64,000 nucleotides of DNA, taken from assembly GCA_964417895.1 (NCBI GenBank), contig CAYQJS010000014.1, positions 15,076 to 79,075 on the forward strand, read 5' to 3'. The notes under the pieces are model-generated. The model worked only from the letters and a program-made list of their open reading frames with translations. It was not told where the DNA came from and did no database searches. The stretch is from an uncultured Chloroflexota bacterium. GTDB lineage: Bacteria; Chloroflexota; UBA6077; SHYK01. Position 1 is the stretch's first letter, and the number at the start of each line of letters is the position of its first letter. The position numbers and the translations under genes were made by a program. Positions 22,935-62,809 of the stretch are shown here, piece after piece.

Positions 22935-22947
22935 CGCCGTCGCTCTG

Positions 22948-40835: not shown

Positions 40836-40845
40836 GATAGGGGTC

Positions 40846-42388: not shown

Positions 42389-42426
42389 CACATCCCTTGC
42401 GCCGCGGATAATGCGGCAGCAGGGAG

Positions 42427-44499: not shown

Positions 44500-45267
44500 C
44501 TAGACGGCCCCCGCCTTCGTGAGCAAGGTGGCGAGCTCGCCCCGCGAGTGCACGCCGAGGCGGGCGTAGATCTCTTCGAGGTGCGATCGCGCCGTGCGCC
44601 ACGAGATGCTGGCCGCGGAGGCTACGTCCTGCGCGTTCATGCCGGAGGCAAACAGTCGGGCCACGTCCAGCTGCCTCGCCGTTAGCAGCGAGCAGACGCC
44701 TTCACCAGAGTCGAGTGAGCGGGCGTAGGGGTCCGGCGCGTCTTGCTCGGCCGAAAACCACAGGCTCACGTGAAACCCGCTCGGCCGTCCGGGCACCTGC
44801 TGCACTGGCAGCACATGCTCGCGCACCATCGTCATCTTTCCGCTGGCATCTCTGACAACCATCGTCCCGTCCCACTCGCGCGTGGCGCGGTACGTGGCGC
44901 GCTGCAAGTCCTCTTCGGTCTCGAGGACCTCGTCGATCAGGCGGAGGGTGGCTGGCGCGAGGTTGCCCGCCTCGACCTCCTGGTAGAGGCCGCACAGACA
45001 CTGGGCGAGCTCGTCTCTCCAGCGGGGAAACCGGTCGCGATAGGGACCGACGATGGCGGCTGGTACGAATCGCACGGGCCACGGCAGCTGGTCGCGAACC
45101 GGGTCGCCGATGGTGCTCGCGAAAGCGCGATTCACCGAGACGATGCGGTTGCGGCTATCTGTGATAAACGCCATGACCGGGAAGAGATTGAGACACGCGG
45201 CAGCGATCCTCAGGTCCGGCTGCGAGGATCGGATGTCGTCCGTGCTCACACACCCACTGTCCACCAT
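44500..45267 (-). CDS. PAS-like sensor / LuxR-type HTH one-component regulator (paralog A)
   Basis: ATG at 45267 ('MVDSGCVSTDD...'). It has 'FITDSRNRIVSVNRAFASTIG' (PAS-like) and a C-terminal 'LTARQLDVARLFASGMNAQDVA...SWRTARSHLEEIYARLGV' (LuxR/GerE HTH). It is colinear with 57725-58489. Confidence 0.75.
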   Translation of the reverse strand: MVDSGCVSTDDIRSSQPDLRIAAACLNLFPVMAFITDSRNRIVSVNRAFASTIGDPVRDQLPWPVRFVPAAIVGPYRDRFPRWRDELAQCLCGLYQEVEAGNLAPATLRLIDEVLETEEDLQRATYRATREWDGTMVVRDASGKMTMVREHVLPVQQVPGRPSGFHVSLWFSAEQDAPDPYARSLDSGEGVCSLLTARQLDVARLFASGMNAQDVASAASISWRTARSHLEEIYARLGVHSRGELATLLTKAGAV

Positions 45268-45334
45268 GCCGCACCCCCTCCCTTGCCGCGCGGGCGAGCA
45301 GCCTCGCGCGGCAGACCAACTGAACGATCCGGAC

Positions 45335-45376
45335 ACAATAGCTGACTCCGTGGTTGCTGTAAGGGGGCATTTGCCC
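45335..45376 (-). promoter_or_regulatory. Operator-promoter module M4 (upstream of PAS-LuxR paralog A)
   Basis: Minus strand: GGGCAAATGCCC-c-CTTACA-17 nt-TATTGT. Confidence 0.55.
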
Positions 45377-45416
45377 GACGTGTCGTTTGCCCCGACGGCG
45401 GCCGAGAGACTCGGAA

Positions 45417-45556
45417 CTACGGCTCGCGGCTGCGCTTGCACCTCCTGTCCGGCTCGATGTGGGGTCTGGACGACGTGCCCTCAGCATAGGCGTGTCGAGA
45501 GGAGCCGGCATCCCCCGAAAGGGATATCTGTTGGCGAGGTGCGGGATAGTTTCCTC
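45417..45556 (-). pseudogene. Cupin gene reduced to its leader/RBS fused to its last ~22 nt
   Basis: 45439-45556 is colinear with the leader 52182-52304, including 'ggaggtgcaag'. 45417-45438 matches the 3' end of cupin 59416-59730 ('aagcgcagccgcgagccgta'). The whole CDS between them is missing. Confidence 0.65.
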
Positions 45557-45634
45557 CGACGTCGATGTAGCGGGCAGCCTGGTCGAACCGATCCGCGGGG
45601 CTCTGCAGTGTGGTTTCGGCTTCGCGCATCCAGC

Positions 45635-46276
45635 TCACCTTACGTTCGCCCGCATCCACTCGATGATCACGTCGGCGATCTGGATGTTGTTCCTCTCCAT
45701 CATGAGCATGTGGCTATTGCCGAAGATTCTGAGATCGGCAGATTCAGGTGACGCGCTCGACCACCGGCACCGCTGATGCTCTGCACCAGCGCCTGGCACT
45801 GACTCATCCTGGGCTCCCAAGTGGGATTGCCGATGGTCCGGTCTCCGAATATCGTCAAGACTGGGAGGCGGGTGAAGACCGACCGAATGTCGCTGTCGGA
45901 GACTGGGCAGCTCCGGGGCTCGATGGGCACCACGACCTTCACCAACTCCGGATGTGCGATCGCGGCCGCCAACCCTTGCGGGCCCGACCCGGAATGAACC
46001 ATGAGCAGCGCCGGCCCGATCTGGTCGAGCAACGCGATGAACCCGTCGACCTGTTTCTGACTTTCGTTCGGAGCGAGGGTGCTCTCGGCATTTGGAACTA
46101 ACTGAGCGAAGTACTGGTCCGCTGACGCGTCGGGAAATTGGGAGTCGCTGTAGGGCACGCGGAGCTCGGGTCCTATTCGGAGACCTGTCCAAGCCCTCGC
46201 GTTGCCGCAGTGGCCCCGAGGGCGAGAAGGGCTGCAAGGACAAGGAAGGCCCATATCTTGTTGCTCAGTAGATGGT
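45635..46276 (-). pseudogene. Secreted alpha/beta hydrolase with at least two frameshifts
   Basis: TTG at 46276 gives the signal peptide 'MKLHHLLSNKIWAFLVLAALLALGATAA' and then a stop. The body ('...LLMVHSGSGPQG...') and the C-terminus ('RIFGNSHMLMMERNNIQIADVIIEWMRANV') are in two other frames. Confidence 0.6.
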
Positions 46277-46545
46277 GGAGCTTCAAGGTAATCTCCGTTG
46301 AACGAGCTACCTGCTAATAATTCGCGTTGGCGCGCTCGGTCCACGAGCGGGTGTAGAATCCCCGGCAAGCAAGCCGGTGCGCCCCACTGACGGACATAGG
46401 TAGACGGGACGGCGGTAGACATTGCTCCCCTCGCCGCAGTGGCGTCCGCAGCATAAGACCGGCGGGAAGGAGCCGGCGCGGCTGATCGGCCGCAGACTTG
46501 AGGCACAACGGCCGCAATTGGGCCGCACGGCAGCCGCTCCACTGT

Positions 46546-49500
46546 ATGTTCAGCGAAGAGATCGCGTGGAACGATCTCCTGAGGAGCCTCCGACGGGCCG
46601 GGGGGTTCACGCAGGCTGAGTGGAGCGCGCTCATCAGCGCCGCCGCGAAGCCCGGCAGCCGCGCCGCATGGAGCACGGACTCCGTCGCGCGATGGGAGCG
46701 AGGAGACCATCCGCCCAACGCGGACACCGCGGACGCCATCGCCACAGTGTGTCGGGAGAAGCGGCTCTTCGACGCGAGCGGTATAGGTGAGTCGCTACTC
46801 CGAGCCAAGCTGGCCCAGGCCAACGTTCGAGTTGGTCAAGCTCGCGCTAGTCGTTCTTCGGGCGAAGCCTGGCCTGCCGCCGAGATAGGCGACGCATCGG
46901 ACCGCGTTGGCGTGGGCCGCCAGCCGCCCGAGGCGGGCAGCCTCGCTTCGAGGGGCGTTGTGGCAGGCCTCGCCGGCGCGGTGCGCTTCGTTGGCCGGGA
47001 GCCGGAGCTGGCGGAGCTAACGCACCAGCTCGATGCGGCCTCCGGAGGCCCGGGTGGCATAGTCCTCGTCGCGGGCGAGCCCGGCATCGGCAAGACCCGG
47101 CTCGTCCTCGAGGTGGCCGACCGAGGCCGGACCCAGGGGTGGGAGGTGCTGTTCGGCCGAGCTTATGAGTCCGGGGGGATGCCTCCCTACCTTCCGCTTG
47201 TCGAGGCGCTACGCGCCTACGTTTGGACCTGTCCCCTCGATCAGTTGCGGGGCCAGCTCGGGGTGGGGGCCGCCGAAGTAGGCCTGCTAGTGCGAGAGGT
47301 ACGGGCGCGCCTGCCCGACCTGCCGTCCAGCCCGCCCCTCAGCCCGGAAGAAGAACGCCATCGTCTGTTCGAAGGCGTTTCTGACTTCTTGCTCAACATC
47401 GCACGCGCCAGCCCGCGGGGGTTGCTGCTCTGCCTGGATGACCTGCACTGGGCGGACAAGCCAACTCTTCTTTTGGTCCAGCACCTGGCGCGCAAGCTGG
47501 CCGACGCGCCGCTGCTCGTCGTCGGCACCTATCGGACGGTAGAGCTTGACCGAACCCACCCGCTCTCGGACGTGCTGGCGGAGCTGAGCCGTGAGCATCT
47601 CTACCAACGTATGCTGCTCTCGTCCTTCTCGGCCGACGAGGCCGGGGACTTTGTCCAGGAACGCAATGGCGGCCCAGCGGCCCCGGCTGTTGCCGCTGCG
47701 ATCTACCGAGAGACCGAGGGCAATCCCTTCTTCATGGAAGAGCTTGTGCGGCACCTGCGTGCCGAGAAATGGGATCTGGCGGACCCCAGCGTTGTCGTGG
47801 CCGACTGGGGAATACCGGAAGGGGTGCGGCAGGTCGTTGGCAAGCGCCTCTCTCGCTTGAGTCCGGAGGCGAATCGCCTGCTGCAGGCGGGGGCCGTGTT
47901 GGGCGAGGGTTTTTCCTTCGAGGTGCTCGGGGCGGTCAGCGAGTTGGAGCATTCGGGTACAAGGGAGCCCGCGGCCCTGGCGAGGCATGCCTCGCCCCTC
48001 CTGGATGCGCTCGAGGAGGCTCTCGGCGCCGGTCTGCTCCGGGAGGAGGCGCAAGACTATCACTTCACCCATGCACTGGTGCGCCAGACCATCGAGGCCG
48101 AGCTGAGCCTTCCGCGCAAGCAGCGACTCCACCTGCAGGCCGCGGAGGCCATCGAGCGCATCCACGCCCGCAATCCGGAACCTCATGCGGCTGAGCTGGC
48201 TTACCACTTCTTCCGGGCTGCCCGCGGCGGAGTCGCGGACAAGGCGGTTACCTATGCACGGCGGGCGGGCGAGCGCGCGCAAACCGTCTTCGCGTACGAG
48301 GAGGCGGTGCGCTTCCACGCTATGGCGCTGAAGGCGCTCGACCTCACCGACGCGCCCGACCCGGCCCAGCGCTGCGATCTGCTCTTGGCCCTGGGGGAGG
48401 CCCAAATGCCATTGGGCGAGCCACGTGGGGTGGCAGATGGCGTTGCGTCGGAGGCATTCGGCCTGGCCGAGGGTCTCGGCGATCGTGGCCGGGCCTCGAG
48501 AGCATGCCGGATGGTCCTGGAGGCGCTCCATCGGGACGCCCCGCGCAATACCGATACTCCCCAATGGCGCGCATGGGCGGACCTGGCTGACCGGCACGCG
48601 GAACCGGAGACTCCCGACCGAGCCTACGCCGACATTGCCATGGCGCGAGCCGCGATTGCAGCTGGCGACCAGGGCAGGGCCGTCGACCTGCTGGAGCGGG
48701 CGCTGGGTCTTGCCAGGCACCTAGACGACCCGGAGCTGCTCTGCACCTGCGCTTGGCAGCTCATGTGGGCCGGGTACACGCCCCAGCACTGGCGGCGCTC
48801 GGTGGCCATCGCCGAGGAATTCCTCGATTGGCCGCGGGAGCGGGTGCGCAGCCGCACCATCGGGCAGGTGCTGGAGTTCTGCGGCTTGATGCTGCTGGCT
48901 AATGGGGACCGAGCCGGCGTGGAGCGGGCCTGGGGAGAGTTGAGCCAGCTCGCGGCCCGCGCACGGGACGCGTTCAACCAACTCAATGCCATGAGCTATG
49001 AGGCCGTACTGGCGACCCTCGACGGACGGCTGCACGAGGCCGCGGAGATTGGTCGCCGCATGATGGCCCTCGGGGAGAAGCTGGGGATGGAGCGGGCAGC
49101 GGCGTACTTCGCGCTGACCCGGTGCGGGCGGGCGCTCCTTTATTTGGGACAAGCCGACGAGCTGGAGAGCCTCAATCGCGCGGGGGGGCCCCTCATATCC
49201 CAGACGGCCTTCGTACACGCGTATACGGGACGGCGCACCGAGAGCCAGGCCATGGTGCGAGCCTGGCTGGCCGAACATCCGCCCGATGCTGGCACGCCAG
49301 TGGACTATCTGAGCAACCTTGCGAGGTTTCTCGAGACCGCCGTGATCCTCGAGGATCGCGACGCCGCGGCGATCCTCGCTCAATGGCTGGTGGACGCTCC
49401 GCCGGTTCAGGCCGCAGGCTTCGCCACCTGCTTTGCCCGGCACGTTGGGGCGGCGGCGGCGCTTAACGGGGATCGGGCCCGGGCGCGGGACCACTACCAG

Positions 49501-49986
49501 GCGGCGCTGAAGGTGGCCACGCTACTGCATTACCGCCCGGAGGTGGCACTCACCCGCCTGCAGCTCGCCGAGCTACTGCTCGATGAGGCTTTCGCTCGGG
49601 AACGCCGTTCCCCCTCCAGGAGGGAGAAAGAGCAACGACAGGCCGAGGGGCTCGAGCATCTGGACTTTGCTATCGACGAGCTCCGCGCCATGAATATGAA
49701 GCCGGCTTTGGAGCGCGCCCTGCAAGTGCGCGGCGGCCAGCAGCCTGTGACTCCGCATCCCGACAGATCGGCACGCTTTCGGGCGGCATACCCCGCGGGC
49801 CTCTCCGAGCGGGAGCTGGATGTGTTGCGCCTTATCGCCGCGGGCAAGAGCAACCAGCGCATCGCGGATGAGCTGGTGATCAGCCTCAACACCGTGATCC
49901 GCCACGTGAGCAACATCTTCGCCAAGACCGGTGTGGCCAACCGGGTCGAGGCGGCCACCTATGCCACTCGCCACGGGCTCGCGTAG
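46546..49986 (+). CDS. Large ATPase-TPR-LuxR (LAL-type) regulator 1, with an extra N-terminal XRE-like HTH
   Basis: The N-terminus has 'LRRAGGFTQAEWSALI...SVARWERGDHPP'. The P-loop is 'GEPGIGKTRL', followed by a long TPR-like region and a C-terminal 'LSERELDVLRLIAAGKSNQRIADELVISLNTVIRHVSNIFAKTG'. The start is either 46546 or 46498. Confidence 0.8.
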   Translation: MFSEEIAWNDLLRSLRRAGGFTQAEWSALISAAAKPGSRAAWSTDSVARWERGDHPPNADTADAIATVCREKRLFDASGIGESLLRAKLAQANVRVGQARASRSSGEAWPAAEIGDASDRVGVGRQPPEAGSLASRGVVAGLAGAVRFVGREPELAELTHQLDAASGGPGGIVLVAGEPGIGKTRLVLEVADRGRTQGWEVLFGRAYESGGMPPYLPLVEALRAYVWTCPLDQLRGQLGVGAAEVGLLVREVRARLPDLPSSPPLSPEEERHRLFEGVSDFLLNIARASPRGLLLCLDDLHWADKPTLLLVQHLARKLADAPLLVVGTYRTVELDRTHPLSDVLAELSREHLYQRMLLSSFSADEAGDFVQERNGGPAAPAVAAAIYRETEGNPFFMEELVRHLRAEKWDLADPSVVVADWGIPEGVRQVVGKRLSRLSPEANRLLQAGAVLGEGFSFEVLGAVSELEHSGTREPAALARHASPLLDALEEALGAGLLREEAQDYHFTHALVRQTIEAELSLPRKQRLHLQAAEAIERIHARNPEPHAAELAYHFFRAARGGVADKAVTYARRAGERAQTVFAYEEAVRFHAMALKALDLTDAPDPAQRCDLLLALGEAQMPLGEPRGVADGVASEAFGLAEGLGDRGRASRACRMVLEALHRDAPRNTDTPQWRAWADLADRHAEPETPDRAYADIAMARAAIAAGDQGRAVDLLERALGLARHLDDPELLCTCAWQLMWAGYTPQHWRRSVAIAEEFLDWPRERVRSRTIGQVLEFCGLMLLANGDRAGVERAWGELSQLAARARDAFNQLNAMSYEAVLATLDGRLHEAAEIGRRMMALGEKLGMERAAAYFALTRCGRALLYLGQADELESLNRAGGPLISQTAFVHAYTGRRTESQAMVRAWLAEHPPDAGTPVDYLSNLARFLETAVILEDRDAAAILAQWLVDAPPVQAAGFATCFARHVGAAAALNGDRARARDHYQAALKVATLLHYRPEVALTRLQLAELLLDEAFARERRSPSRREKEQRQAEGLEHLDFAIDELRAMNMKPALERALQVRGGQQPVTPHPDRSARFRAAYPAGLSERELDVLRLIAAGKSNQRIADELVISLNTVIRHVSNIFAKTGVANRVEAATYATRHGLA

Positions 49987-50203
49987 CCGTCGTCGCGGCC
50001 CGCCGGGCAGCCTGGCATGGAGTGCCATGGAACGAGCCGCCGGACTACTCACAGTTTGCTGTTATCGCCTTGCCAGCCGGCGGCCACCGGCAGCTTTTCG
50101 CCTCCTCGAAGATAGCAAGGTCCGGCGATGTGCCCCCCGCGCGGCGGAGCCATACTAGACAGGCGAACGAGTTCGATATGCCTATACCACAGGAGGTCTT
50201 ACA

Positions 50204-50467: not shown

Positions 50468-50623
50468 CGATTGGTGTTGACCTACGGCGCGGGATCTCGC
50501 TGACGGATGACGGGCTAAGGGAAGCGTCGGCGCATCATCAACTTTCGCGTTCATGAATTGGCCGCGGGGCGGCCGTGGGAGTACTGGCTCGACCACCAGC
50601 ATTCGTGGCCGACGGCCCTGGAC

Positions 50624-50665
50624 AGCGTAGTCAGACCCTGGACGCCTGTCATGGGGCATTTGCCG
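50624..50665 (-). promoter_or_regulatory. Operator-promoter module M5 (downstream of the ACAD gene; drives only a 3-codon remnant)
   Basis: Minus strand: cGGCAAATGCCC-c-ATGACA-17 nt-TACGCT. An ATGAACGCG at 50554 is identical to the first 9 nt of the TAP-like hydrolase gene, and homology ends there. Confidence 0.5.
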
Positions 50666-50677
50666 GATGGGGATCGC

Positions 50678-51865
50678 CTATGCGTTTCCTGGCCGCTGCG
50701 CCGAATTCTCCCAGGTGGCTGCGAACAGGTTGTCGAAGGCGAGCCCCCAAGGCGGCCGCAAGAACCCGAGGGCACGAACGTCTTCAAACCAGAAGCCAAA
50801 CGGTGACTCGCGGCCGTAGGTCCCACCGCCGACTATTCGGCACAGCCTCTGGAGCACCGACTCCGCCAGCTCAGCGATCGCGATCTTCGCCAGCCTGCGG
50901 CCGGCGCCTCCCTGCTCAACGGCGCGCAGCATGCCCTCATACGCCTGCTCGACGAGCCACGCCTCGGTCTCGGCCCGCGTCCACTCGACGCGCTCGAACG
51001 AGCGCCAGTCGGGGCGCCGCCCCAGCGCCTCACGAGCAGTCTCCATCGCCGTTGCGACGATCCCAGCCATGATTGCCGGCCACAGCGGGCTGCCCCCCGA
51101 CGGTTCCTGGGAACGGCGGACCGCCTGCGGCGCGGCGGCGCGCCGGGCGGGGAAGTCCTCGAACATCAGCATGTGGCTCTGCGTGGCCGCCATGCCGTGG
51201 CCGTCCCACGGCGCCACGAGCTTGACGCCCGCCGACCCGTCAAAGGGAATACCGCGCATATCCAGGATGAAGTCGTCCCGCCTCGACTCGCCCTCCGGGA
51301 TAGCGACGGTGATCATGTACGAGGCGACGCCGGTGCCGCTCCCGAAGTGCTTCAGGCCACTGAGGCGGTACTCGCCATCGCCCTGCCCACACCGGGCGAC
51401 CGACTTGGTCTTCGACGTATCGCCGCCGCTGCCCGGCTCCGACGCGATGGTGCTCCACCAGGCTCCGTCCGTCACCGTCTGGAAGATCCAGCGCTTCTGC
51501 TCCGCCCAGGCGTCCGCATAAGGGGGCGGCGCCTGCGCGTCGGCCAGCCACCCGTAGGCGCTGAGCACCGCGGGATGCATCGACGCGACGAGGGCCACGG
51601 AGGAATCCCCTTTCGCCAGCATGCGGAACATGTCAGCCAGAGCCCGGATGGAGCGCGGCATGCCCTCCCACAGACCACCGTACCTGGAGGGAGCACACGC
51701 CAGCAGCAGGCCCGTGTCCCTGAGGTGATCGAAGTCGGCTGGATCGAGCGCCCGCCTGCGCTGTCTCTCGCCTCGCTGCTGGGCAAAGGCCGCCGCTACA
51801 TCGCGCACGTTCTCCGCCACGGTTTGCATGTCCACGGTCAACCCTCCCTGACGAGCAAGAGCCAC
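50678..51865 (-). CDS. Acyl-CoA dehydrogenase-family protein
   Basis: 395 aa with 'IASEPGSGGDTSKTKS' (ACAD-type motif). The start lies 7 nt after the cupin stop, suggesting an operon. Confidence 0.75.
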   Translation of the reverse strand: MALARQGGLTVDMQTVAENVRDVAAAFAQQRGERQRRRALDPADFDHLRDTGLLLACAPSRYGGLWEGMPRSIRALADMFRMLAKGDSSVALVASMHPAVLSAYGWLADAQAPPPYADAWAEQKRWIFQTVTDGAWWSTIASEPGSGGDTSKTKSVARCGQGDGEYRLSGLKHFGSGTGVASYMITVAIPEGESRRDDFILDMRGIPFDGSAGVKLVAPWDGHGMAATQSHMLMFEDFPARRAAAPQAVRRSQEPSGGSPLWPAIMAGIVATAMETAREALGRRPDWRSFERVEWTRAETEAWLVEQAYEGMLRAVEQGGAGRRLAKIAIAELAESVLQRLCRIVGGGTYGRESPFGFWFEDVRALGFLRPPWGLAFDNLFAATWENSAQRPGNA

Positions 51866-51872
51866 TCCAAGA

Positions 51873-52181
51873 CTAACGCCCGGTCTTGCTCTCTACGATG
51901 ATCGCCTTGATGTCGGAGGCGCCGACGTTCTCCACCGTGTGCGTCCATGCCTCGTGCCACATGATGTGGCCGTCCGGCAACTCGGCCTGCACGGCGTCAC
52001 CGCCTGGCAGGTGGATCTTCACTTTGCCTCCGTTGACGAAGTACACCGTCTCATCGGGATGGGAATGCTGCTGATCCTTCTCGCCGGCCCTCAGGCTCAT
52101 CTCCAGGACGCGCACGCGTTCGTTCTCGAAGAGGGTCTTGTAGTGCCGAGGCGACGCCTGTACCGGATCGATGTATGTCAT
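51873..52181 (-). CDS. Cupin-domain protein (paralog 1)
   Basis: 102 aa, RBS GGAGG. It has 'QQHSHPDETVYFVNGG...HEAWTHTVEN'. Paralogous to 59416-59730. Confidence 0.8.
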   Translation of the reverse strand: MTYIDPVQASPRHYKTLFENERVRVLEMSLRAGEKDQQHSHPDETVYFVNGGKVKIHLPGGDAVQAELPDGHIMWHEAWTHTVENVGASDIKAIIVESKTGR

Positions 52182-52304
52182 CCTTGCACCTCCTGTCCGG
52201 CTCAAAGTGGGGTCTGGACCACGTGCCTTCAGCATAGGCGTATCGAGAGGAGCCGGCGTCCCCCGAAAGGGATATCTGTGGGCCAGGTGCGGGATACTTT
52301 CCTC
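52182..52304 (-). promoter_or_regulatory. Conserved ~120-nt leader upstream of the cupin gene (second copy at 45439-45556)
   Basis: The two copies differ at roughly ten positions by eye. It contains CCGGCTC...GAGCCGG and ATCCC-tttcg-GGGA pairings. Confidence 0.4.
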
Positions 52305-52344
52305 TGGCGCCGGGACGCCCGGGCCCGGTGGAGTAGGAAGAAGC

Positions 52345-54819: not shown

Positions 54820-54851
54820 GGGCCGGGTCGGATCCGGACAACGGCTGGAAG

Positions 54852-55159
54852 CCTACGCAACCGGCGCACCCATGAGCACGCCTGCGCTGAAGAAAACGTT
54901 AGACCTCTGGCGCAACACCACGCCGGCGGCCGATCCGTATCTCGATACGCTGACCACGAGCATCTTGCAGTCAGAAATGACCATCCGGACGGGCGCCAAG
55001 CGACTTATCGGCTCCATGCTCCGCCGCGTGACCTACCATTACTCGTATCACACCGGAGAGACTCAGAGCATCCGCCAGATGCTGGGCCACAAGGACCTCC
55101 CCGGGTTCATCGGTCCCATCGACGCGGGAGCGCCATATCGCCCAGAACACCCGAGCTAG
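54852..55159 (+). pseudogene. 5'-truncated DinB-family gene (C-terminal ~100 codons only)
   Basis: 'YATGAPMSTPALKKTLDLWRN...RRVTYHYSYHTGETQSIRQMLGHKDLPGFIGPIDAGAPYRPE' is colinear with residues ~68-169 of 42427-42936. Homology begins about 30 nt from the LAL-2 start codon. Confidence 0.7.
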
Positions 55160-55359: not shown

Positions 55360-55429
55360 CTAACCTGCGCGACGACCTCGAAGCTCTCGCGTCCGCGGGC
55401 TCCCGATCGTCCTGCGGTTGTAGTCCAGG
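55360..55429 (-). pseudogene. ABM-like gene reduced to its leader fused to its last ~30 nt
   Basis: 55360-55389 matches the 3' end of 57216-57506 ('cgagagcttcgaggtcgtcgcgcaggtt(t)ag'). 55390 onward matches the leader 'gggagcccgcggacg' of that gene. The CDS is missing. Confidence 0.65.
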
Positions 55430-55470
55430 TCTCTATGCAGGCCAGGACTCGGCTGCCTGGGCACTTGCCC
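55430..55470 (-). promoter_or_regulatory. Operator-promoter module M6 (upstream of the deleted ABM-like gene)
   Basis: Minus strand: GGGCAAGTGCCC-AGGCAG-17 nt-TAGAGA. Confidence 0.45.
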
Positions 55471-55556
55471 GATCAGGCCCCAAGTGAACACGGCCCGAGC
55501 TCCGAGCGCGCGTTGTTCCCCGGAGGTGGCGCGGACGCCTGCGGATTCGATGCGGA

Positions 55557-56534
55557 TCAATCGGCGGTGCCCCAGCCGGACCATTCGTGCCGCAGCTCGT
55601 CCGCCATCGTCGCGCCATGGCGCACGCCAGCTTCGGCGGCTAGCGCCGATTCGCCGAATCCCGTCACCGTCGGTGAGTCGGGCGGTGGTAGAACGTGGAC
55701 CACGCTTCCGCCGTAATAACTGCGGAACCGCTCGATTGCCTGTAGGGCACGCTGCCCTGTGCCGCCGGGCGTGATCGCGACCACGACGTTGTAGCCGATC
55801 GCCCCTTCGAGATTCTCTCCCATGACCCCGCCGTCCATGTAGCGCCGCGCACCTACCGTGATCGGCGCATCTCGGCCGGGCGCTGCCCGGCTGGCCGCCA
55901 CGGCGCGCTCAATCGGGACCCCCTGGGCCCGGTCGAAGAACCGCACGGTGCCGTCATACACGTCGACGGCTGCGAGTTTTAGCGGAAGGTCCGGCCAGTC
56001 ACGCATCCCGAGGTCGGCCGCCGTACTTTGGATGCGGTCCTCCTCCAGTGCCCCGTTTGCTGTCAGCGCCATCGCCCCAATCTGAATCCGCTGGGCTACG
56101 GTCCGCTCTGGGGCTAACGGTCCCTGCCACATTCGGGATAGTTCCTGTGTGATCTGGGCGTCTTCGGGTGACTGGACGGGACCGACGGCGAATGGCGCTG
56201 GTGCGAGGGCCTGAGCGTACAGTGCGTCGAGGTCTCGGCCAGCACGGACCAAGGTGGCCACGCGCGAACCTGCGGAGGTTCCGACGAACAGATCAGCTTC
56301 CGTGAGGTCCACCCCTGCGTCGCGCATTCCCTTCAGTACACCCAGTTCCCACGCCTCTCCTACGCTGCCCCCACCGCCGAGCACGACCGCGCGCCGCAAA
56401 CCGGCGAGTTGATTCGTGGCGACCTCAGGAGCCTGCTGGCCAACCGCGGGACTCGATAGGCTGCTGGACGCGACCAGCGCCATACCGAGAGACCACAAAC
56501 TTGCGGCTATGCGGTGCCAACTCGGCGACGTCAT
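55557..56534 (-). CDS. Secreted patatin-like phospholipase
   Basis: It has a signal peptide, 'VVLGGGGSVGEAWELG' (oxyanion GGGxxG), 'GTSAGS' (GxSxG) and 'YMDGGV' (catalytic Asp). Confidence 0.8.
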   Translation of the reverse strand: MTSPSWHRIAASLWSLGMALVASSSLSSPAVGQQAPEVATNQLAGLRRAVVLGGGGSVGEAWELGVLKGMRDAGVDLTEADLFVGTSAGSRVATLVRAGRDLDALYAQALAPAPFAVGPVQSPEDAQITQELSRMWQGPLAPERTVAQRIQIGAMALTANGALEEDRIQSTAADLGMRDWPDLPLKLAAVDVYDGTVRFFDRAQGVPIERAVAASRAAPGRDAPITVGARRYMDGGVMGENLEGAIGYNVVVAITPGGTGQRALQAIERFRSYYGGSVVHVLPPPDSPTVTGFGESALAAEAGVRHGATMADELRHEWSGWGTAD

Positions 56535-56598
56535 GTCTCAGATCCTCCTCCGTTTTCCGTGTGAACCAAGGAAACTCACCATCTGGGAATTGACCGGC

Positions 56599-57147
56599 TC
56601 ACGCCGGCGGATGCCACTCCAACTTGCCGTTCATTGGACCGACGAACCCGATCGACGGGTGACCAAGCATCTGACGAATCGCGTTGATCTCGCCGATGTG
56701 AAACCAGGTGTGGAGCACAGTCCGCATCAGGCCCGTGCCGAGCGACTCATCCAGCAGTCGGCTGCCGTCCAACATTCCTGATCCGACCGTCGCCAGAGCG
56801 GCCTCGTCGGCGAGGGCGACCCAATCGGAGGTGGCTTTCGCCTGGCGGAACAGGTCTAACGCATTGGCGAGCGGAGGCGGCGCCGCAACGTCCGATCCGG
56901 AGCGAAACGGATAGACGGCCTTGCGCAGATCGGCAAACGGCTCGGTTTCCCCCTTCGCGAGAGCAGCCCGGGTCGCGACCCGGACCCACTGCCAGGAGAC
57001 GTGCCCCACGATCCACGAGATCGCATTCATCTGAGTCCCATCGGCCTTGACCAGACGCGAGCTCGCGTCTTTATCGGTGAGGTCGCCCTCAAGAGCGCGC
57101 TCGAAGCTGAACATTGCAAAGTTGGCCAGTTCCTGCGACTTGTACAT
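56599..57147 (-). CDS. DinB-family protein (second type)
   Basis: 182 aa with 'SWIVGHVSWQW' and 'HTWFHIGEINAIRQMLGH'. Confidence 0.75.
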   Translation of the reverse strand: MYKSQELANFAMFSFERALEGDLTDKDASSRLVKADGTQMNAISWIVGHVSWQWVRVATRAALAKGETEPFADLRKAVYPFRSGSDVAAPPPLANALDLFRQAKATSDWVALADEAALATVGSGMLDGSRLLDESLGTGLMRTVLHTWFHIGEINAIRQMLGHPSIGFVGPMNGKLEWHPPA

Positions 57148-57215
57148 CAGCGATCTCCTCTTGGCGATACGAAGAGAGGCCGTGCGAGTAAACCGGCTAA
57201 TGCCATTCCTGAAAG

Positions 57216-57506
57216 CTAAACCTGCGCGACGACCTCGAAGCTCTCGACAGATTGCGTCGCGATCCCCAGTTGTTGCCCGCGCTGACCGGTCACCTGTGTT
57301 ACCTGTCCCTGGCTCGCGCGCATGGAATCCTCATCCTTCCACAGGGTGATGGCGAGCACCTTGCCCGTCTGGCGGTCCATCAGCCAGAGGCCACCCTGAG
57401 AGCCGGCTTGCTGCTCGATGCGCGGCAGAATGTCCTCCTGGATGTGCCGGATCGTGTCAGCGGTGAGATTGGAAGGGCTGGCGACCGTTGTCACGCGTGC
57501 GAACAT
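57216..57506 (-). CDS. Small ABM/Dabb-fold-like protein
   Basis: ATG at 57506 after GGGGAGG. 96 aa reading 'MFARVTTVASP...GGLWLMDRQTGKVLAITLWKDEDSMRAS'. Confidence 0.6.
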   Translation of the reverse strand: MFARVTTVASPSNLTADTIRHIQEDILPRIEQQAGSQGGLWLMDRQTGKVLAITLWKDEDSMRASQGQVTQVTGQRGQQLGIATQSVESFEVVAQV

Positions 57507-57587
57507 TTGTCGGAACCTCCCCTGATCTCGGGCGATGGGCTTGCCTCCGGGACGTCCGCGGGCTCCCAATTCATCCCTGCGTTTTGC

Positions 57588-57629
57588 AGTCTAGGCCGGC
57601 CAGGACGCGGCTGCCTGGGGCAATTGCCC
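57588..57629 (-). promoter_or_regulatory. Operator-promoter module M7 (upstream of ABM-DinB-patatin)
   Basis: Minus strand: GGGCAATTGCCC-c-AGGCAG-17 nt-TAGACT. Confidence 0.5.
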
Positions 57630-57724
57630 GATATTGCGCGGCTTGAATCACCACCCGAGCTAAGAGGGCACGGTGTTGCCCGGAAGCGGGTGCGCAGGGC
57701 GCGAATGCCCGCGGGGTCGAGGCT

Positions 57725-58489
57725 TTAAACCGCTCCTGCGCGGGTCATCACCGATGCAAGCTCGGCCCTGGAATGAACGCCGAGGCGGTCGTAGATCTCC
57801 TCCAGATGCGAGCGCGCGGTTCTCCAGGAGATGCCAGCGGCTGAGGCTACGGCGTCGGCCGTCATGCCAGAGGCGAACAGGCGGGCGATGTCGAGCTGCC
57901 GCGAGGTCAGCGATGACGAGATGATGGTGCCGGAGTCCGCTGCGCGAGCGAACGGCGCGGGTGTATCCTGGTCAGCGGGAAACCACAAGCTCACGTGGAA
58001 CCCGCTCGCCCTTCCCGCGGCAGCCTCCACCGGCAACACGTGCTCGCGGACCAGGGTCATTTTCCCGCCCGGATCCTTGACGACCATGGTCCCGTCCCAC
58101 TCGCGCGTCGTTCGGTAGGTCGCGCGAAGCAGGTCCTCTTCGCCCTCGATCAGGGCTTCGATCAAATGCATGGTGCCCGGCGCCAGATTGCCTGCCTCGA
58201 CCTCCTGGTAGAGCCCCGGGAGACACTGGGCGATCTCGTCTCTCCAGCGCGGGAATCGGTCGCGATAGGGACCAACGATCGCGGCTGGCAGGAACCGCGC
58301 CGGCCACGGCAGCTCGTCACGAACAGGATCGCCGATCGTGCGCGCAAAGGCGTGGTTCACCCAGATGATGCGGTTGCAGCGGTCGGTGAGAAAAGCCATG
58401 ATCGGGAACAGATTCAGACACGCCGCGGCCACCCGCAGCTCTTGTTGCGAGGATCGGGCCTCGTCCGTGCTCGCGCGCCCACCATCCAC
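57725..58489 (-). CDS. PAS-like sensor / LuxR-type HTH one-component regulator (paralog B)
   Basis: 254 aa, colinear with 44500-45267. It has 'FLTDRCNRIIWVNHAFARTIG' and a C-terminal LuxR HTH. Confidence 0.75.
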   Translation of the reverse strand: MDGGRASTDEARSSQQELRVAAACLNLFPIMAFLTDRCNRIIWVNHAFARTIGDPVRDELPWPARFLPAAIVGPYRDRFPRWRDEIAQCLPGLYQEVEAGNLAPGTMHLIEALIEGEEDLLRATYRTTREWDGTMVVKDPGGKMTLVREHVLPVEAAAGRASGFHVSLWFPADQDTPAPFARAADSGTIISSSLTSRQLDIARLFASGMTADAVASAAGISWRTARSHLEEIYDRLGVHSRAELASVMTRAGAV

Positions 58490-58554
58490 CGTGCCTCCCT
58501 CCTCCGCCCGCGGGCGGGCGGCTTCGCGCCGACGACCGGGTTCACGATCCCGGC

Positions 58555-58596
58555 ACAGTACTCCACTCCGCGCCCCGTGTCATGGGGCATTTGCCC
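58555..58596 (-). promoter_or_regulatory. Operator-promoter module M8 (upstream of PAS-LuxR paralog B)
   Basis: Minus strand: GGGCAAATGCCC-c-ATGACA-17 nt-TACTGT. Confidence 0.55.
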
Positions 58597-58723
58597 GACA
58601 GCGCCAGACGGTCCGTGGATTGCGAGCTTGGCGGTTGCTGACCAGGCGTGCTACCCAGGCACCACCGTGATGCTCCCGACTGTGCCGCGCTCGTGATGGA
58701 TCAAGCAATAGTGCTCGCAGTGG

Positions 58724-59251
58724 CTAGGACGGGCTCCAGGCCAGCGTCTCCGTATTCCCGATCAGCTCAAGCGATGGGGTGCCGTCATCCGCGACGAGCA
58801 ACCGGATCCGGTCCTTGCCGGTCTCGTCCCGCAGGACCACATTGGCATCGCCTAGGGAGCGGCCGGCCAGCTCGGCGGACCGGCCGACGCCACCGATCCG
58901 CACGATGGGAACGCTGCCGTTCCAGAGCGCGAATCCCTGGCTGACACTTCCATCCGGGTTATCCCCCATTTCGACATGGACCCGGAGTTGTCCGTTCAGA
59001 TCAAAGATCCGCAGCGCGCCGGTGTTGCCGGGACCAGCTACCAGGTGTATGCGGTCGGTGCCGCCGTCCGTAACGATCATGGACTGTTCGGCCCGCAGGT
59101 CGGAGCTCTCTCCATCCCGCCGTTCTGGCAGCTGAGGCGGCTGCGGCTGGGCACCCGCGGAGCCCGGATCCACAAGGCTCGACGCCAAGACGGTTCCGAG
59201 GACAGCCATAGCGAAGGATACGATTCCCGATAGCGCAACCGTTCGATTCAT
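58724..59251 (-). CDS. Secreted hypothetical protein
   Basis: ATG at 59251 after GAGGAGG. 175 aa with a signal peptide and a repetitive beta-rich sequence. I recognise no family. Confidence 0.55.
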   Translation of the reverse strand: MNRTVALSGIVSFAMAVLGTVLASSLVDPGSAGAQPQPPQLPERRDGESSDLRAEQSMIVTDGGTDRIHLVAGPGNTGALRIFDLNGQLRVHVEMGDNPDGSVSQGFALWNGSVPIVRIGGVGRSAELAGRSLGDANVVLRDETGKDRIRLLVADDGTPSLELIGNTETLAWSPS

Positions 59252-59345
59252 GACAAGTGGCCTCCTCAATGCTGACTTCGATTCGCCTCTACATCTGCCG
59301 AGATCGGCGTAGCGTCGCCCCGTGGCCCGTCTTCCCGGCCCCGGC

Positions 59346-59387
59346 AGCGTACTCCGCTTCGCGGCTCGTGTCATGGGGCATTTGCCC
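59346..59387 (-). promoter_or_regulatory. Operator-promoter module M9 (upstream of the secreted hypothetical protein)
   Basis: Minus strand: GGGCAAATGCCC-c-ATGACA-17 nt-TACGCT. Confidence 0.55.
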
Positions 59388-59415
59388 GACAGCGGATGTC
59401 CGACCGGCACCCTCT

Positions 59416-59730
59416 TTACGGCTCGCGGCTGCGCTTGTTCTCGACGATGATGGCCCTGATGTCGGACTCGCCGACGTTCTCGACCGTGTGTGTCCACGCC
59501 TCATGCCACATCACGTGGCCGTCCGGTAGATCGGCCTCCACGCTTTCACCACCGGGAAGGTAGATCTTGACCTTGCTTCCCGTGATGAAGAAGACGGTTT
59601 CGTCCTGGTGAGAATGCTGCACGTCCTTCTCGCCCGCCTTCAGATTCATCTCCAGGACGCGAACCTCGTCGTTGTTCAACAGTAAGCGGTAGTTATTTGG
59701 GGAAGTTTTCGTGGGGTCAATGTAGTTCAT
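59416..59730 (-). CDS. Cupin-domain protein (paralog 2)
   Basis: ATG at 59730 after GAGGAG. 104 aa, colinear with 51873-52181. Confidence 0.8.
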   Translation of the reverse strand: MNYIDPTKTSPNNYRLLLNNDEVRVLEMNLKAGEKDVQHSHQDETVFFITGSKVKIYLPGGESVEADLPDGHVMWHEAWTHTVENVGESDIRAIIVENKRSREP

Positions 59731-59873
59731 GGGTTCTTCACTCCTCATGGCGTTATCCGGATGACGGCCCATCCAGTGTTGCTCATCGACGCGAGGCGCG
59801 GCATCGCTGGAAGTTGCTATTAGTGGAGAAAGGGATCCGTCGGGCGCCTTTGCGGGGGAATAGCAATATCTTG

Positions 59874-62809
59874 CTAGAGGAGTCCGTGTCGGCTGGCGAA
59901 GACTGCGGCCTCGGCGCGGTTAGCCGCCCCAGTCTTGGTGAGGATGTTGCTCACGTGTCGGATCACCGTGTTGGGGCTGATGACCAGCGCCTCTGCGATC
60001 TCGCGGTTGCTCTTTCCGGCAGCGATCAAGCCAAGAACCTCGACTTCGCGTGCGGAGAGACCGGCCGGGAAGATGTCACTGGGGTGCGACGCAGGGGCTG
60101 TGCGCTGTCGGGCTCGAATTGCCAGAGCGCGTTCGAGCGCCGGTTGCATGTGCATCGCCCGGAGTTCAGCAATGGCAGCGTCCAGGTGCTCGTGCGCCGC
60201 CGCGCGCTCGCCAGGCTCGCCCTGGAGAAGCAGCTCGGCGAGCTGCAGGCGGGTTAGCGCTAGCTCGGGGCGAAAGCCGAGCTGTTCCGTGTCTTGCAGC
60301 CCGCGCTCGTACCAGGATCTGGCTGTCTCGCGGGCCCCAGCGAGCGCGGCGGCGGCGCCCAGATGTCGGGCGAACGTGGTAATGAACCCGAACGGCGACG
60401 CGGGCGGGCCGTCCCGAAGCCAATCAGCGAGCGGGCGCGCGGCCTCGAGGTCCTGCACCACCACAGCGGCATCCAGCATCATATGCAGGATGTTGAGAGG
60501 CTCGGCCAACGGGGTGTCCAGGGTCTCGTACGACGCAAGCTTGTCCCGTAGGAGGGCGCGAGTCTCTTCTACCCGTCCGCCGTAAGCGGCGAGCGCTACT
60601 CTTGGCCCGTAGGTCGGTTCATTACTGTAGCTCTCGAGCTCGCCGGCCAGACCTAAATACACGAACGCTCGCCCGCATCGGCCGATGGCAAACTGCTCGG
60701 CTACGCGCGGCGTGCCCAGCGCTTCTCCGCGCGCCAGCATGTGCCGGGCGATCTCCACTGCCTCCTCTAGGCGCCCGTCCACGGTGGCAAGCAGCCCCCG
60801 ATAGCTCATCGCGTTGATCTCGTTGAAGGCGTCGCGGGTCTGATCGGCCAACTGGCCCAGCTCATGCCAGGCGCTGGCAGCCCCTCCGAGGTCGCCTTTT
60901 GCGAACAGACCCGCGCCGCACATCTCCAGGATCTGGCCAACGGTTCGGCTCCGCACGCCCCCGTGGGGCCGGGTTGCGAACTCTTCCGCCAGGGCAACGG
61001 CGCGGCGCCAGTGTCCCGGGGTCAGCTCGTTGTAGATCGCCTGCCAGGCGCACGTGAAAAGCAGCTCTGGATCGTTCAGAGTCCTAGCAAGCTTGAGCGC
61101 TCGCTCCAGGAGCTCGATTCCGGCGGAACGGTCGCCATTGCCGATGGCGGCACGCGCGAGGGCGACATCGGCGTAAGCGCGATCGGAAGTTCCCGGCGCC
61201 GCGTGGGCGTCCGCGCGGTCGGCCCAGGTGCGCCACTCGGGAGTTTCGGTGTTACCGGGACGGTCCCGATGGAGCGCCTCGAGGACCATGCGGCAGGCGC
61301 GCGAGGCTCGCGGATGGTCGTCGGCGGCCTCAGCGGCGGCGAATGCGCGGGTTGCGACGCCTTCTGCCACCTCGCGCGGATGGCCGAGCGGCATCTGGGC
61401 CTCACCGAGGGCGAGCAGCAAGTCACAGCGCTGCGAGGGGTCCGGGGTACCCGAGAGATCGAGAGCCCCGAGAGCTGCGCCGTAGAACTTTACCGCCTCT
61501 TCGTAAGCATAGACGTCCCGTGCGTGCTCGCCGGCGCGCACGGCGTAACGAACCGCGTTAGCCGAACCGCCGCTCGGCATCGCCTCGATAAAGTGATGTG
61601 CGATCTCGGCCGCACCCTGGCCTGGGTTGCCGCCTCGCTGGTGGTCGAGCGCCTCTGCGGCCCGCAGATGCAATCGCTGCCTGCGTGGCAGGCTCAGCTC
61701 GTCGTAGAGGCACCGCCGGACGAGCGCATGCGTGAAGTGATAGGCCCTGGCTTCTTCCCGGAGTAGACCGGAGCTAAGAGCTTCCTCCAGGGCATCTAGC
61801 GGGGCCGCGGGCGCTCGGCGCCCGGACTGTCGACGGCGCTGAGCAGCTCAAAGGTGAAGCCTTCACCCAACACGGCGGCTACCTGTAGCAGGCGGTTCGC
61901 GTCGGGGCTCAAACGGGACAACCTCCTGGCGATAACCTGGCGCACCCCCTCAGGGATACTCCACTCGATTACGCTCGCCGTAGGGTCGGTGAGATCCTTT
62001 CCTTCGCTGGCGAGCTGTCGGACGACCTCCTTCACGAAAAACGGGTTGCCCTCCGTTCCGCGGTAGATCGCCTCTGCTACAGCGGGCGCGACGGCTGACC
62101 CGTTCAGCGCCCCAATCAGCATCTCCACGTCTGCGGCCGACAGGGACGGAAGAAGAAACCGCCGATAGAGATGCTCGCGGCTCAGCTCCGCCAGGACGTC
62201 CGAGAGGGGATGGGCATGGCCCAGCTCGACGGGTCGATACGTGCCGACCAGGACGAGGGGAGCCCTGGAAACCTTCCGGGCAAGATGCTGGAACAACAAG
62301 AGGGTGGGCTTGTCCGCCCAGTGCAGATCATCCACGCACAGCAGTGCACCCCGTGGACTCAACCCCGCGATGCTCAGCACGAACTCGGCGACCGATTCGA
62401 AGAGGCGGTATCGGTCTTGCTCGGCACCGAGCGACGCGCCGCTGGGCAGATCGGGGAAACGCGCGCGTAGCTCCCTGACCAACAGGGCCACATCGGGAGC
62501 TCCATCGCCGAGCTGCAAGCGGAGCCGGTCGGTGGGCTCGCTCAACGCGTAATCGCGTAGCGCCTCAGTGAAGGGTAGGTAGGGAGGAACGCCCTCGGAC
62601 TCGTAGGCCCGCCCGACCAGCACTCGGGCTCCCTGGTCGTTCGCGACGCGTGCCAGCTCGAGCAGGAGGCGTGTCTTCCCGATTCCAGGCTCGCCAGCAA
62701 CGAGGAGCGCGGCCCCGCGGCCAGCGCCGGCAGCCTCCAGGCTTGCCCGGAGCTCGCCCAGCTCCAGCACGCGCCCGACGAACGGGGTGCCGCCCCAGAG
62801 ATCAGCCAA
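59874..62809 (-). pseudogene. Large ATPase-TPR-LuxR (LAL-type) regulator 3, split by one frameshift
   Basis: The N-terminal ATPase ORF (61796-62809, 'GEPGIGKTRLLLELA') ends 'SAVDSPGAERPRPR*'. The continuation 'PLDALEEALSSGLLREEARAYHFTHALV...' is open in another frame and runs into ORF 59874-61673 (TPR + LuxR HTH). It is colinear with LAL-1. Confidence 0.7.

Follow-up and report, generated by a model that had tools for sequence, protein, structure and literature searches.

The 64,000-nucleotide stretch of contig CAYQJS010000014.1 analysed here (the window, with a G+C content of ~65%) carries at 39-63 kb an island of transcriptional regulators, small enzymes and secreted proteins, in which one short sequence, a predicted operator-promoter, recurs ahead of genes and of gene remnants. 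Genes were called from open reading frame (ORF) maps and Pfam scans of the window, paralogy from a self-BLAST of the window and a six-frame comparison, and the closest named homologues come from metagenome-assembled genomes of Dehalococcoidia, Chloroflexota and Gemmatimonadota. Going by those names, the host, a sediment bacterium, probably belongs to the Chloroflexota, class Dehalococcoidia; an actinomycete, which the G+C content had at first suggested, was rejected on the same grounds. Loci of relatives used for comparison are labelled L047, L048, L050, L051, L053-L057 and L059-L061, together with the P0135 contig. The regulators are of two kinds, large LAL proteins built on a STAND ATPase and small PAS-LuxR proteins, each with a LuxR-type helix-turn-helix (HTH):

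46498-49986, plus strand: LAL-1, intact, 1162 amino acids, with an N-terminal extension, an AAA_16 STAND ATPase and a LuxR HTH; orthologue of LAL1134 of L047.
52345-54819, minus strand: LAL-2, intact, 824 amino acids, with an NB-ARC/AAA_22 ATPase, TPR_12 repeats and a LuxR HTH.
59874-62809, minus strand: LAL-3, of the AAA_16 type, ~977 amino acids if read through, broken by a 1-nt frameshift.
61796-62809 and 59874-61673, minus strand: the two pieces of LAL-3, an AAA_16 ORF and a GerE ORF (Pfam and ORF map).
44500-45267, minus strand: PAS-LuxR A, 255 amino acids (GerE, E=1.2e-10; MLTR_LBD, E=1.5e-5).
57725-58489, minus strand: PAS-LuxR B, 254 amino acids (GerE, with weak MLTR_LBD and PAS matches).

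The two PAS-LuxR proteins are 76% identical in DNA and 75% in amino acids, and their recognition helices are identical. Their MLTR_LBD scores, 25.6 and 24.6 bits, lie just under the gathering score of 26.3. The AlphaFold model of PAS-LuxR B (pLDDT 90) consists of a PAS fold and a four-helix LuxR HTH; the N-terminal region has no HTH match, and the only HTH of the model is the C-terminal one of LuxR type. Its best fold matches in Foldseek are EL222, VqmA and 3clo, and the PAS part superposes best on 3pxp (TMq 0.47, root-mean-square deviation 4.1 Å over 177 columns). The family is a rare one: its profile finds just 32 of 1.84 billion representatives at E<=1e-30, with HTH-only matches beyond ~1e-30, and a PimM-like name is attached to none of 50 close homologues. 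In a neighbour-joining tree PAS-LuxR A falls outside (L047, (L051, B)), so the A/B duplication predates the split of these organisms.

All three LAL proteins contain the NTPase motifs (GxxxxGKT as Walker A, hhhhDD or DN as Walker B) and a C-terminal GerE domain (E=8.8e-18 in LAL-1, 2.4e-15 in LAL-2 and 2.8e-18 in the C-terminal ORF of LAL-3). LAL-1 and LAL-3 match AAA_16 (E=8e-28 and 7.4e-24) and share 67% DNA identity over 2.2 kb in the self-BLAST; read through, LAL-3 aligns end to end both with LAL-1 (59% of amino acids) and with the intact LAL of L054 (71%). Its frame shifts inside GAGCGCCCGCGG, at ~61805-61815, a site across which LAL-1 and the L054 protein are continuous. The same lesion is present in a Logan contig (run X1, record 8), the Logan contigs being separately built from sediment runs X1-X4, which may include the window's own source data. 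LAL-2 has only the LuxR HTH in common with the other two; it is 67% identical in amino acids to its orthologue in L047, LAL824, and by its sequence belongs to a different STAND subfamily. The recognition helices follow this division, SxNTVIRHVSNI in LAL-1 and LAL-3 and TEGTANLHVKHI in LAL-2, both unlike that of PAS-LuxR. TAGCAATATCTTGCTA, a perfect palindrome at 59861-59876, overlaps with the stop codon of LAL-3 and lies in the 138-nt spacer that separates LAL-3 from the following cupin gene (cupin-3). In L050 and L051 this spacer is conserved at 93% and the genes on its flanks at 82%; the palindrome (TAGCAANNNNTTGCTA) has one occurrence, compatible with chance.

The modules that recur across the island are these:

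59312-59394, minus strand: M9 (box 59375-59387), before the cassette of a secreted 175-aa protein.
58521-58603, minus strand: M8 (box 58584-58596), before PAS-LuxR B, with a -35-like ATGACA and a -10-like TACTGT.
57553-57684, minus strand: s96 operator-promoter (box 57617-57629), before s96 and a DinB_2 gene.
55458-55470, minus strand: degenerate box of the s96-remnant operator-promoter, joined to the last 28 nt of an s96 paralogue.
50540-50665, minus strand: M5 (box 50653-50665), comprising the box, the 5' untranslated region and the three initial codons of a hydrolase paralogue that is otherwise gone.
45290-45379, minus strand: M4 (box 45364-45376), before PAS-LuxR A.
42369-42382, matching both strands: symmetric dyad box between the divergent genes DinB168 (plus) and Ldh_2 (minus).
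41016-41192, minus strand: orphan box-promoter (box 41180-41192), followed only by the 3' end of an arylsulfotransferase paralogue.
40736-40937, minus strand: M5' block (box 40823-40835), before a TAP-like hydrolase, containing the 3' remnant 40863-40937 of an acyl-CoA dehydrogenase (ACAD)-fold gene.

M4, M5, M8 and M9 are copies of one sequence, TC-GGGCAAATGCCC followed by ATGACA, ~17 nt and TAnnnT, and M8 and M9 retain 81% DNA identity over 83 nt. Across the window nine sites share (A/G)TC-GGGCAAATGCCC-S, ATGACA, 17-19 nt and TAnnnT, and every one of them lies on the strand of the next gene, facing that gene or its remnant, 60-110 nt before the start codon. An alignment of the sequence upstream of PAS-LuxR in the window, L047, L048, L050 and L051 shows an invariant GGGCAAATGCCCC, then the T, A and T of TAnnnT. 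The box occurs 15 times in the window with at most two mismatches against 2.4 expected, a number reached in none of 100 shuffles, and with an extended 14-nt pattern there are 10 matches where 0.22 would be expected, all of them at 40.8-59.4 kb. The dyad abuts ATGACA, and its centre lies ~42 nt upstream of the predicted transcription start, taken as ~7 nt past the -10 element; in class II activation by LuxR-type proteins the lux box sits at this same place, near -42. The symmetric box at 42369-42382 is flanked by -10-like elements on both sides, GATAAT at 42407-42412 on the plus strand and TAGTAT on the minus strand. The first-pass annotation of this DNA had taken these reused non-coding parts for leftovers of duplication, and a shared operator-promoter explains them better. 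We also considered a small peptide starting at an ATG within the box, and rejected it: the ATG is absent from several copies (GGGCAATTGCCC, CGGCATTTGCC) and indels break the frame.

In nine relatives at 42-98% protein identity (L047, L051, L053, L054, L055, L057, L059, L060 and L061), which are all the loci with available DNA, the dyad recurs a short way downstream of PAS-LuxR and in front of a DinB-family gene or operon. The site reads GGGCAAATGCCC-GATGACA-N17-TACACT in L057 and CGGCATTTGCCC-GATGACA-N17-TAAAAT in L059, and the dyad is CGGCATTTGCCG in L055 and CGGCGAACGCCG in L053. The DinB_2 protein of the window is the orthologue of the DinB gene that stands beside PAS-LuxR in the distant relatives, and throughout the family, wherever the box is present, the recognition helix of PAS-LuxR, SWRTARxHLEEIY, hardly varies. 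An AAA_16 STAND protein adjoins PAS-LuxR in L047, L051, L053, L054 and the P0135 contig, whilst the contigs of several box-bearing relatives, some of them short, show no LAL. In L053 (5966-9847) and P0135 the STAND protein upstream of PAS-LuxR has an N-terminal Ser/Thr kinase and no LuxR HTH, the L053 protein being homologous to LAL-1 and LAL-3 over ~920 residues. Could the STAND partner, then, act on PAS-LuxR by a route other than DNA binding? The kinase-fused homologue without an HTH suggests that it may.

Since the PAS-LuxR helix is nearly invariant and distinct from those of the LAL proteins, and since the box is kept without a LAL on several contigs, PAS-LuxR appears the best candidate for the protein that binds the box. 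We consider it fairly probable that 39-63 kb as a whole represents the regulon of a rare PAS(MmyB-like)-LuxR activator, expanded and repeatedly recombined into an island, the modules being the activator's operator-promoter. In such a regulon the PAS domain would bind a small hydrophobic ligand, and a PAS-LuxR dimer would occupy the dyad and activate transcription in class II fashion. Its targets would be its own gene, the ABM-DinB_2 operon, the divergent DinB168/Ldh_2 pair, secreted proteins and a secreted hydrolase, and PAS-LuxR A and B, with identical recognition helices, should read the same boxes. The AAA_16 STAND ATPase (LAL-1, LAL-3 and, elsewhere, the kinase-fused homologue) would be a recurrent partner, probably acting upstream of PAS-LuxR, and LAL-2, with its different recognition helix, probably controls the leader-cupin-ACAD genes. 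The PAS-LuxR switch probably turns on a set of detoxification-type enzymes. As to history, we posit old segmental duplications (67-80% DNA identity), a later exchange, suggested by two non-coding leaders that are 91% identical, and finally many gene losses that left orphan promoters behind.

Several observations weigh against this regulon. In the more distant relatives no box lies upstream of the PAS-LuxR gene itself, so autoregulation would be limited to the window's own clade, and the boxes at 41192 in the window and at 13445 in L047 face no intact gene. A strict sigma-70 and terminator scan gave nothing above shuffled background and left the module promoters uncalled, their hexamers being too imperfect for it; three metatranscriptome runs yielded no contigs from the region. 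No LAL operator was identified, and the arguments for a LAL-to-PAS-LuxR hierarchy, which we hold to be probable, are adjacency and analogy. Finally, the box scan covers the 64 kb of the window rather than the rest of the genome, which bears on the size of the regulon.

The remaining genes and remnants of the island, on which its history turns, are as follows:

39177-40718, minus strand: TAP-like alpha/beta hydrolase, secreted, 513 amino acids from ATG 40718 (Abhydrolase_1, Abhydrolase_4), with M5' upstream.
41221-42284, minus strand: Ldh_2-family dehydrogenase, a probable pseudogene with at least two frameshifts; tblastn with the L047 Ldh_2 gives three pieces in different frames.
42436-42936, plus strand: DinB168, of the DinB/MST family (DinB_2, E=6.7e-12; MST, E=1.6e-8), 80% of amino acids identical to L047 DinB168.
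45420-45564, minus strand: leader A (45435-45564) and the last 19 nt of a deleted cupin (45420-45438).
~45635-46200, minus strand: esterase pseudogene, C-terminal half only, with one frameshift.
50678-51865, minus strand: ACAD-fold flavoenzyme, 80% of amino acids identical to ACAD391 of L047; the nearest named families, SfnB and DszC, score far below cut-offs.
51873-52181, minus strand: cupin-2, 102 amino acids, 80% identical to cupin-3 in DNA and 70% in amino acids.
52183-52312, minus strand: leader B, non-coding, between LAL-2 and cupin-2.
54848-55147, plus strand: DinB168 paralogue, 5'-truncated, residues 69-168 only (tblastn, 74%).
55362-55524, minus strand: s96-locus remnant (a second ABM), with a degenerate box-promoter and the last 28 nt of the ORF.
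55557-56534, minus strand: patatin-like phospholipase (Patatin, E=2.2e-16).
56599-57147, minus strand: DinB_2 protein, 182 amino acids (DinB_2, E=2.4e-4), 52% identical to L053 DinB195 and 47% to the 198-aa protein of L055.
57216-57506, minus strand: s96, a small ABM-fold protein of 96 amino acids, 86% identical to L047 s96.
58724-59251, minus strand: secreted 175-aa protein of the M9-M8 cassette, with a signal-peptide-like N-terminus and a GAGGAGG ribosome-binding site.
59416-59730, minus strand: cupin-3, 104 amino acids, with an H-x-H-x3-E...H metal motif.

Paralogous pairs within the island reach self-BLAST E-values of 1e-46 to 0, and the island holds at least eight decayed pieces. The block 40736-40937 is 81% identical in DNA to 50568-50773, and its ACAD remnant was recognised by a tblastn match to the ACAD C-terminus; the truncated DinB168 copy (54854-55147) is 76% identical to 42640-42933; and the arylsulfotransferase paralogue at 41016-41092, consisting of the last 23 nt and a terminator hairpin, is 88% identical to 37544-37620. 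Where the unit-A cupin was deleted, the leader runs into ...GGAGGTGCAAG|CGCAGCCGCGAGCCGTAG, the ORF having been lost between CAAG microhomologies, and 45420-45438 is identical to 59419-59437 at the 3' end of cupin-3. Four orphan 5' modules (41016-41192, 45420-45564, 50540-50665 and 55362-55524) keep a promoter or leader whose ORF is gone, what is left of that ORF being no more than three initial codons or a final 19-28 nt.

How did this set arise? The first-pass annotation had described three paralogous units, A at 44-46 kb, B at 52-55 kb and C at 59-62 kb, each of a LAL, a cupin, a module and a PAS-LuxR in a different state of decay. We consider it unlikely, though not far-fetched, that one ancestral LAL-cupin-module-PAS-LuxR unit was triplicated and then underwent differential loss. 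Much of the description holds: all the parts of the gene orders claimed for A, B and C lie where they were placed, LAL-1 and LAL-2 have open frames throughout, and the decay is real (the 1-nt frameshift of LAL-3, the deleted unit-A cupin and the esterase pseudogene). True paralogy links LAL-1 to LAL-3, PAS-LuxR A to B, cupin-2 to cupin-3 and one leader to the other, and colinearity is partial: A and C share the order cupin, M module, PAS-LuxR, A and B the order leader, cupin, and ACAD, M5 and a hydrolase start occur both in unit B and at 40.7-40.9 kb. The extra N-terminal HTH proposed for LAL-1 stands less firmly, in that the extension is present and shared with the relative's orthologue, but the HTH_3 match there is weak (E=0.008).

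Against a single triplicated unit, however, stands LAL-2, which is no copy of the LAL-1/LAL-3 gene (NB-ARC/TPR_12 as opposed to AAA_16, with the HTH alone in common) and whose orthologue LAL824 resides together with the LAL-1 orthologue in L047. Unit B, moreover, shows no trace of a PAS-LuxR gene. Paralogous pieces also lie outside the units (the DinB168 fragment, the s96 remnant, the ACAD 3' end and the sulfotransferase 3' end), the repeated set reaches beyond 44-63 kb, down to 39.2-44.5 kb, and identities are heterogeneous, from 67% to 91%, which points to several events. On the 21.6-kb contig of L047 the order is LAL1134 (minus)...LAL827, LAL824, a HIBADH-like dehydrogenase, ACAD, cupin, PAS-LuxR, s96, DinB168 (minus) and Ldh_2, and the counterparts of this row lie in four places in the window: Ldh_2 and DinB168 at 41.2-42.9 kb, LAL-1 at 46.5-50 kb, ACAD, cupin-2 and LAL-2 at 50.7-54.8 kb, and s96, PAS-LuxR B and cupin-3 at 57.2-59.7 kb. 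As L047 has both LAL types, one cupin and one PAS-LuxR, we see the pattern as a network of pairwise shared adjacencies.

A second alternative concerns the reader of the box, which could be an operator of LAL-1, LAL-3 or LAL-2, the PAS-LuxR gene being merely one LAL target. LAL-type regulators of Streptomyces do bind a PAS-LuxR gene's promoter (PMC5930380, PMC3367932), each of the two PAS-LuxR genes of the window has a box upstream, and L054 has a box upstream of a LAL gene. We nevertheless find this rather improbable: the box lies beside PAS-LuxR/DinB in L055, L057, L059, L060 and L061, where the fetched contigs, some of them short, show no LAL; the STAND partner in L053 has no HTH at all; and it is the PAS-LuxR recognition helix that is nearly invariant wherever the box is present.

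Several homology breakpoints lie at promoter modules. Left of M9 the sister locus L051 shares 82% identity with the window, right of M8 it shares 97%, and the cassette between them differs: in L051 (1904-3100) a secreted 398-aa protein with two plastocyanin/azurin-type copper domains (cupredoxin) replaces the 175-aa protein. This cassette swap and the four orphan 5' modules are suggestive, though not conclusive, of recombination at or near promoter modules that shuffles the members of the regulon. Taken one step further, and here we are doubtful, the operator-promoter modules might double as portable junctions, making the island a promoter-bounded cassette array. If so, a transcription-factor operator would act as the scaffold for recombination by which a regulon gains and drops members, with the conserved trio of STAND, PAS-LuxR and DinB as its fixed core.

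Perhaps, conversely, the modules are primarily mobile or recombinogenic DNA, resembling miniature inverted-repeat transposable elements or cassette junctions, whose spread is selfish or a by-product. That homology blocks begin or end at the box, that the M9-M8 cassette differs between sister strains and that four orphan 5' modules persist without an ORF would all fit. Yet the modules always face a gene, at a fixed distance and with -35-like and -10-like hexamers; no inverted repeats appeared in a repeat search of 44.1-44.5 kb, no terminal inverted repeats or target-site duplications are evident in the module alignments (no specific search was made), and the Pfam scans found no transposase or integrase in 39-63 kb. 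The box is moreover kept at the orthologous position down to 42% protein identity, which implies selection on function, and we regard primarily mobile DNA as quite unlikely.

The mosaic, frameshifts and deletions could also be artefacts of metagenome assembly or binning, as repeats of 76-91% identity can mislead an assembler into building chimeras when coverage is low (~3-5x). Separate Logan contigs, from three or four runs, however, span the LAL-3 frameshift and the cupin deletion junction with zero mismatches or gaps, and likewise the LAL-2/DinB-fragment junction and the cupin-2/leader region; because the Logan contigs of X1-X4 cover the frameshift site and every junction without a difference, we judge assembly error very improbable. 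Least credible of all is an anti-phage defence system made of the STAND ATPases, the patatin and the small proteins, for although known defence systems do include STAND NTPases and phospholipases of the patatin kind and PADLOC gave a weak partial patatin match (E=7.5e-5), it matched no NTPase module except for a marginal mad8 (E=4.2e-4) near the LAL-2 Walker A, its remaining matches were confined to HTH and TPR regions with no defence system identified, each of the three STAND proteins terminates in a DNA-binding domain of LuxR type, and the patatin gene lies in an inserted segment absent from L047.

The TAP-like hydrolase, a predicted member of the regulon, begins with a signal-peptide-like stretch, and its start codon, ATG 40718, is preceded by GGAGG as ribosome-binding site; the sequence of the decayed Ldh_2 agrees with Logan contigs. 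The esterase, read through, matches residues 164-320 of PDB 1qlw (E=1.4e-26) and was identified by PDB search alone, with no Pfam or NCBIfam match. For s96 the AlphaFold model (pLDDT 87) gives Foldseek TM-scores of 0.73-0.79 to 3e8o, 4dn9 and MhuD, all of ABM fold; the Pfam ABM match, to the s96 orthologue of L054, reaches only E=0.003, and the family is tiny, at five clusters. PDB sequence searches with s96 and with the 182-aa DinB_2 protein gave nothing informative. The cupin belongs to a strongly conserved type of ~100 amino acids with a metal site, found in Chloroflexota, Gemmatimonadota and some Gammaproteobacteria, its metal residues H39, H41, E44 and H81 being invariant in 38 sequences; its profile matches PDB 9u8n (E=2.8e-8) and 3lag, with Pfam Cupin_2 below the gathering score. 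Across 36 GTDB loci no conserved cupin neighbourhood was found, a LAL lying near the cupin only in L028, and the link of cupin to island is lineage-specific (the window, L047, L050 and L051, and again L056). The leader upstream of the cupin was not found in any related locus compared, and we rejected it as a structured RNA on account of this absence and of fold z-scores of +0.56 and +0.74.

Just downstream of PAS-LuxR A, at 44190-44427, lies a C/G-rich palindromic repeat with hairpins CCCTCCCCC...GGGGGAGGG, of which partial copies occur at 26294-26407 and, inverted, at 36965-37057. Logan depth over it is 39-69x, against ~4x in its flanks, and contigs branch at its edges; it is a dispersed element of the repetitive extragenic palindrome (REP) kind, common in the genome or the community.

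Elsewhere in the window, Rfam finds a single tRNA and nothing else, a tRNA-Ile with anticodon TAT at 24350-24423. At 22230-24381 a PIG-L deacetylase adjoins a GT4 glycosyltransferase, a pair that, at a guess, resembles low-molecular-weight-thiol biosynthesis of the BshB/BshA or MshB/MshA type; the DinB/MST-family enzymes of the island could use such a thiol. At 125-11086 three SBP_bac_5 solute-binding proteins, two Amidohydro_2 proteins and one bicupin are clustered, forming a paralogue-rich catabolic neighbourhood with no relation to the island. Among the called genes of the 64 kb, Pfam shows no polyketide synthase, nonribosomal peptide synthetase or other core biosynthetic domains.

The most useful result, we believe, is the predicted operator-promoter and, with it, the conserved PAS-LuxR/DinB core, often with a STAND partner. 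Almost nothing is known of transcriptional regulation in uncultured Dehalococcoidia-like Chloroflexota, and this locus offers a testable regulon of three parts: a rare PAS-LuxR sensor family, a predicted operator of 12-14 bp placed like a lux box, and a conserved DinB-family target joined by lineage-specific recruits, namely ABM, cupin, the ACAD-like enzyme, Ldh_2, the secreted hydrolase and cupredoxin proteins. It suggests that the pairing of a STAND ATPase with PAS-LuxR probably occurs outside actinomycetes and outside biosynthetic clusters, and its decayed copies and orphan promoters illustrate clearly how duplication, recombination and loss can reshape a regulon.

The island is built from known kinds of parts, and it is against these that it can best be placed. 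VqmA, the Vibrio receptor of 3,5-dimethylpyrazin-2-ol (DPO), and EL222, a LOV-HTH protein, share with PAS-LuxR the two-domain build of PAS and LuxR HTH (Foldseek E=9e-8 to 1e-5), in which a signal- or ligand-sensing PAS controls a palindrome-binding dimer of LuxR-type HTH. Sequence identity, however, is only 12-17%, and whole-chain TM-scores stay at ~0.3 because the domains are differently arranged. The best structural match of the PAS sensor is to the MmyB-like regulators (PF17765; 3pxp, from Chloroflexus aurantiacus). MmyB-like proteins bear an N-terminal Xre-type HTH, whereas the DNA-binding domain of PAS-LuxR is a C-terminal LuxR HTH. With the STAND activators of the MalT/LAL type, LAL-1, LAL-2 and LAL-3 share the Walker A/B NTPase, the helical or TPR sensor and the C-terminal LuxR HTH; they differ in that the island holds two distinct NTPase subfamilies, in the extra N-terminal extension of LAL-1, and in that the homologous STAND body is fused to a kinase in relatives, without an HTH.

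The closest parallel lies in the polyene clusters of Streptomyces, which contain several LAL genes and one PAS-LuxR gene ordered in LAL-to-PAS-LuxR hierarchies (PMC9774167, PMC5930380, PMC3367932), and in which the PimM/NysRIV-type operator CTVGGGAWWTCCCBAG lies in the -35 region of target promoters (PMC9774167). The first-pass annotation had thought the combination in the window undescribed; such cascades are known in Streptomyces, but in the literature searched we met neither this PAS-LuxR family nor its DinB/ABM/cupin targets or its operator, and no paper linking DinB, LuxR, PAS and Chloroflexi in like manner. As in NysRI-RIII/NysRIV, FscRII-RIV/FscRI and PimR/PimM, large ATP-binding LuxR regulators are clustered with small proteins of N-terminal PAS and C-terminal LuxR HTH (~190-250 amino acids; one to a cluster in those cassettes), a GGG...CCC-style dyad is placed at the -35 region, and the PAS-LuxR gene of the island would likewise be under control in its turn, probably in a hierarchy. 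The dyad of the island, TC-GGGCAAATGCCC-S, nevertheless has another sequence and half-site length, its targets are small enzymes and secreted proteins with no biosynthetic cluster in the window, its sensor appears MmyB-like, and its host is probably a member of the Chloroflexota, not an actinomycete. In outline the island is like the Streptomyces cascades of LAL and PAS-LuxR, but we do not count it as one of their family.

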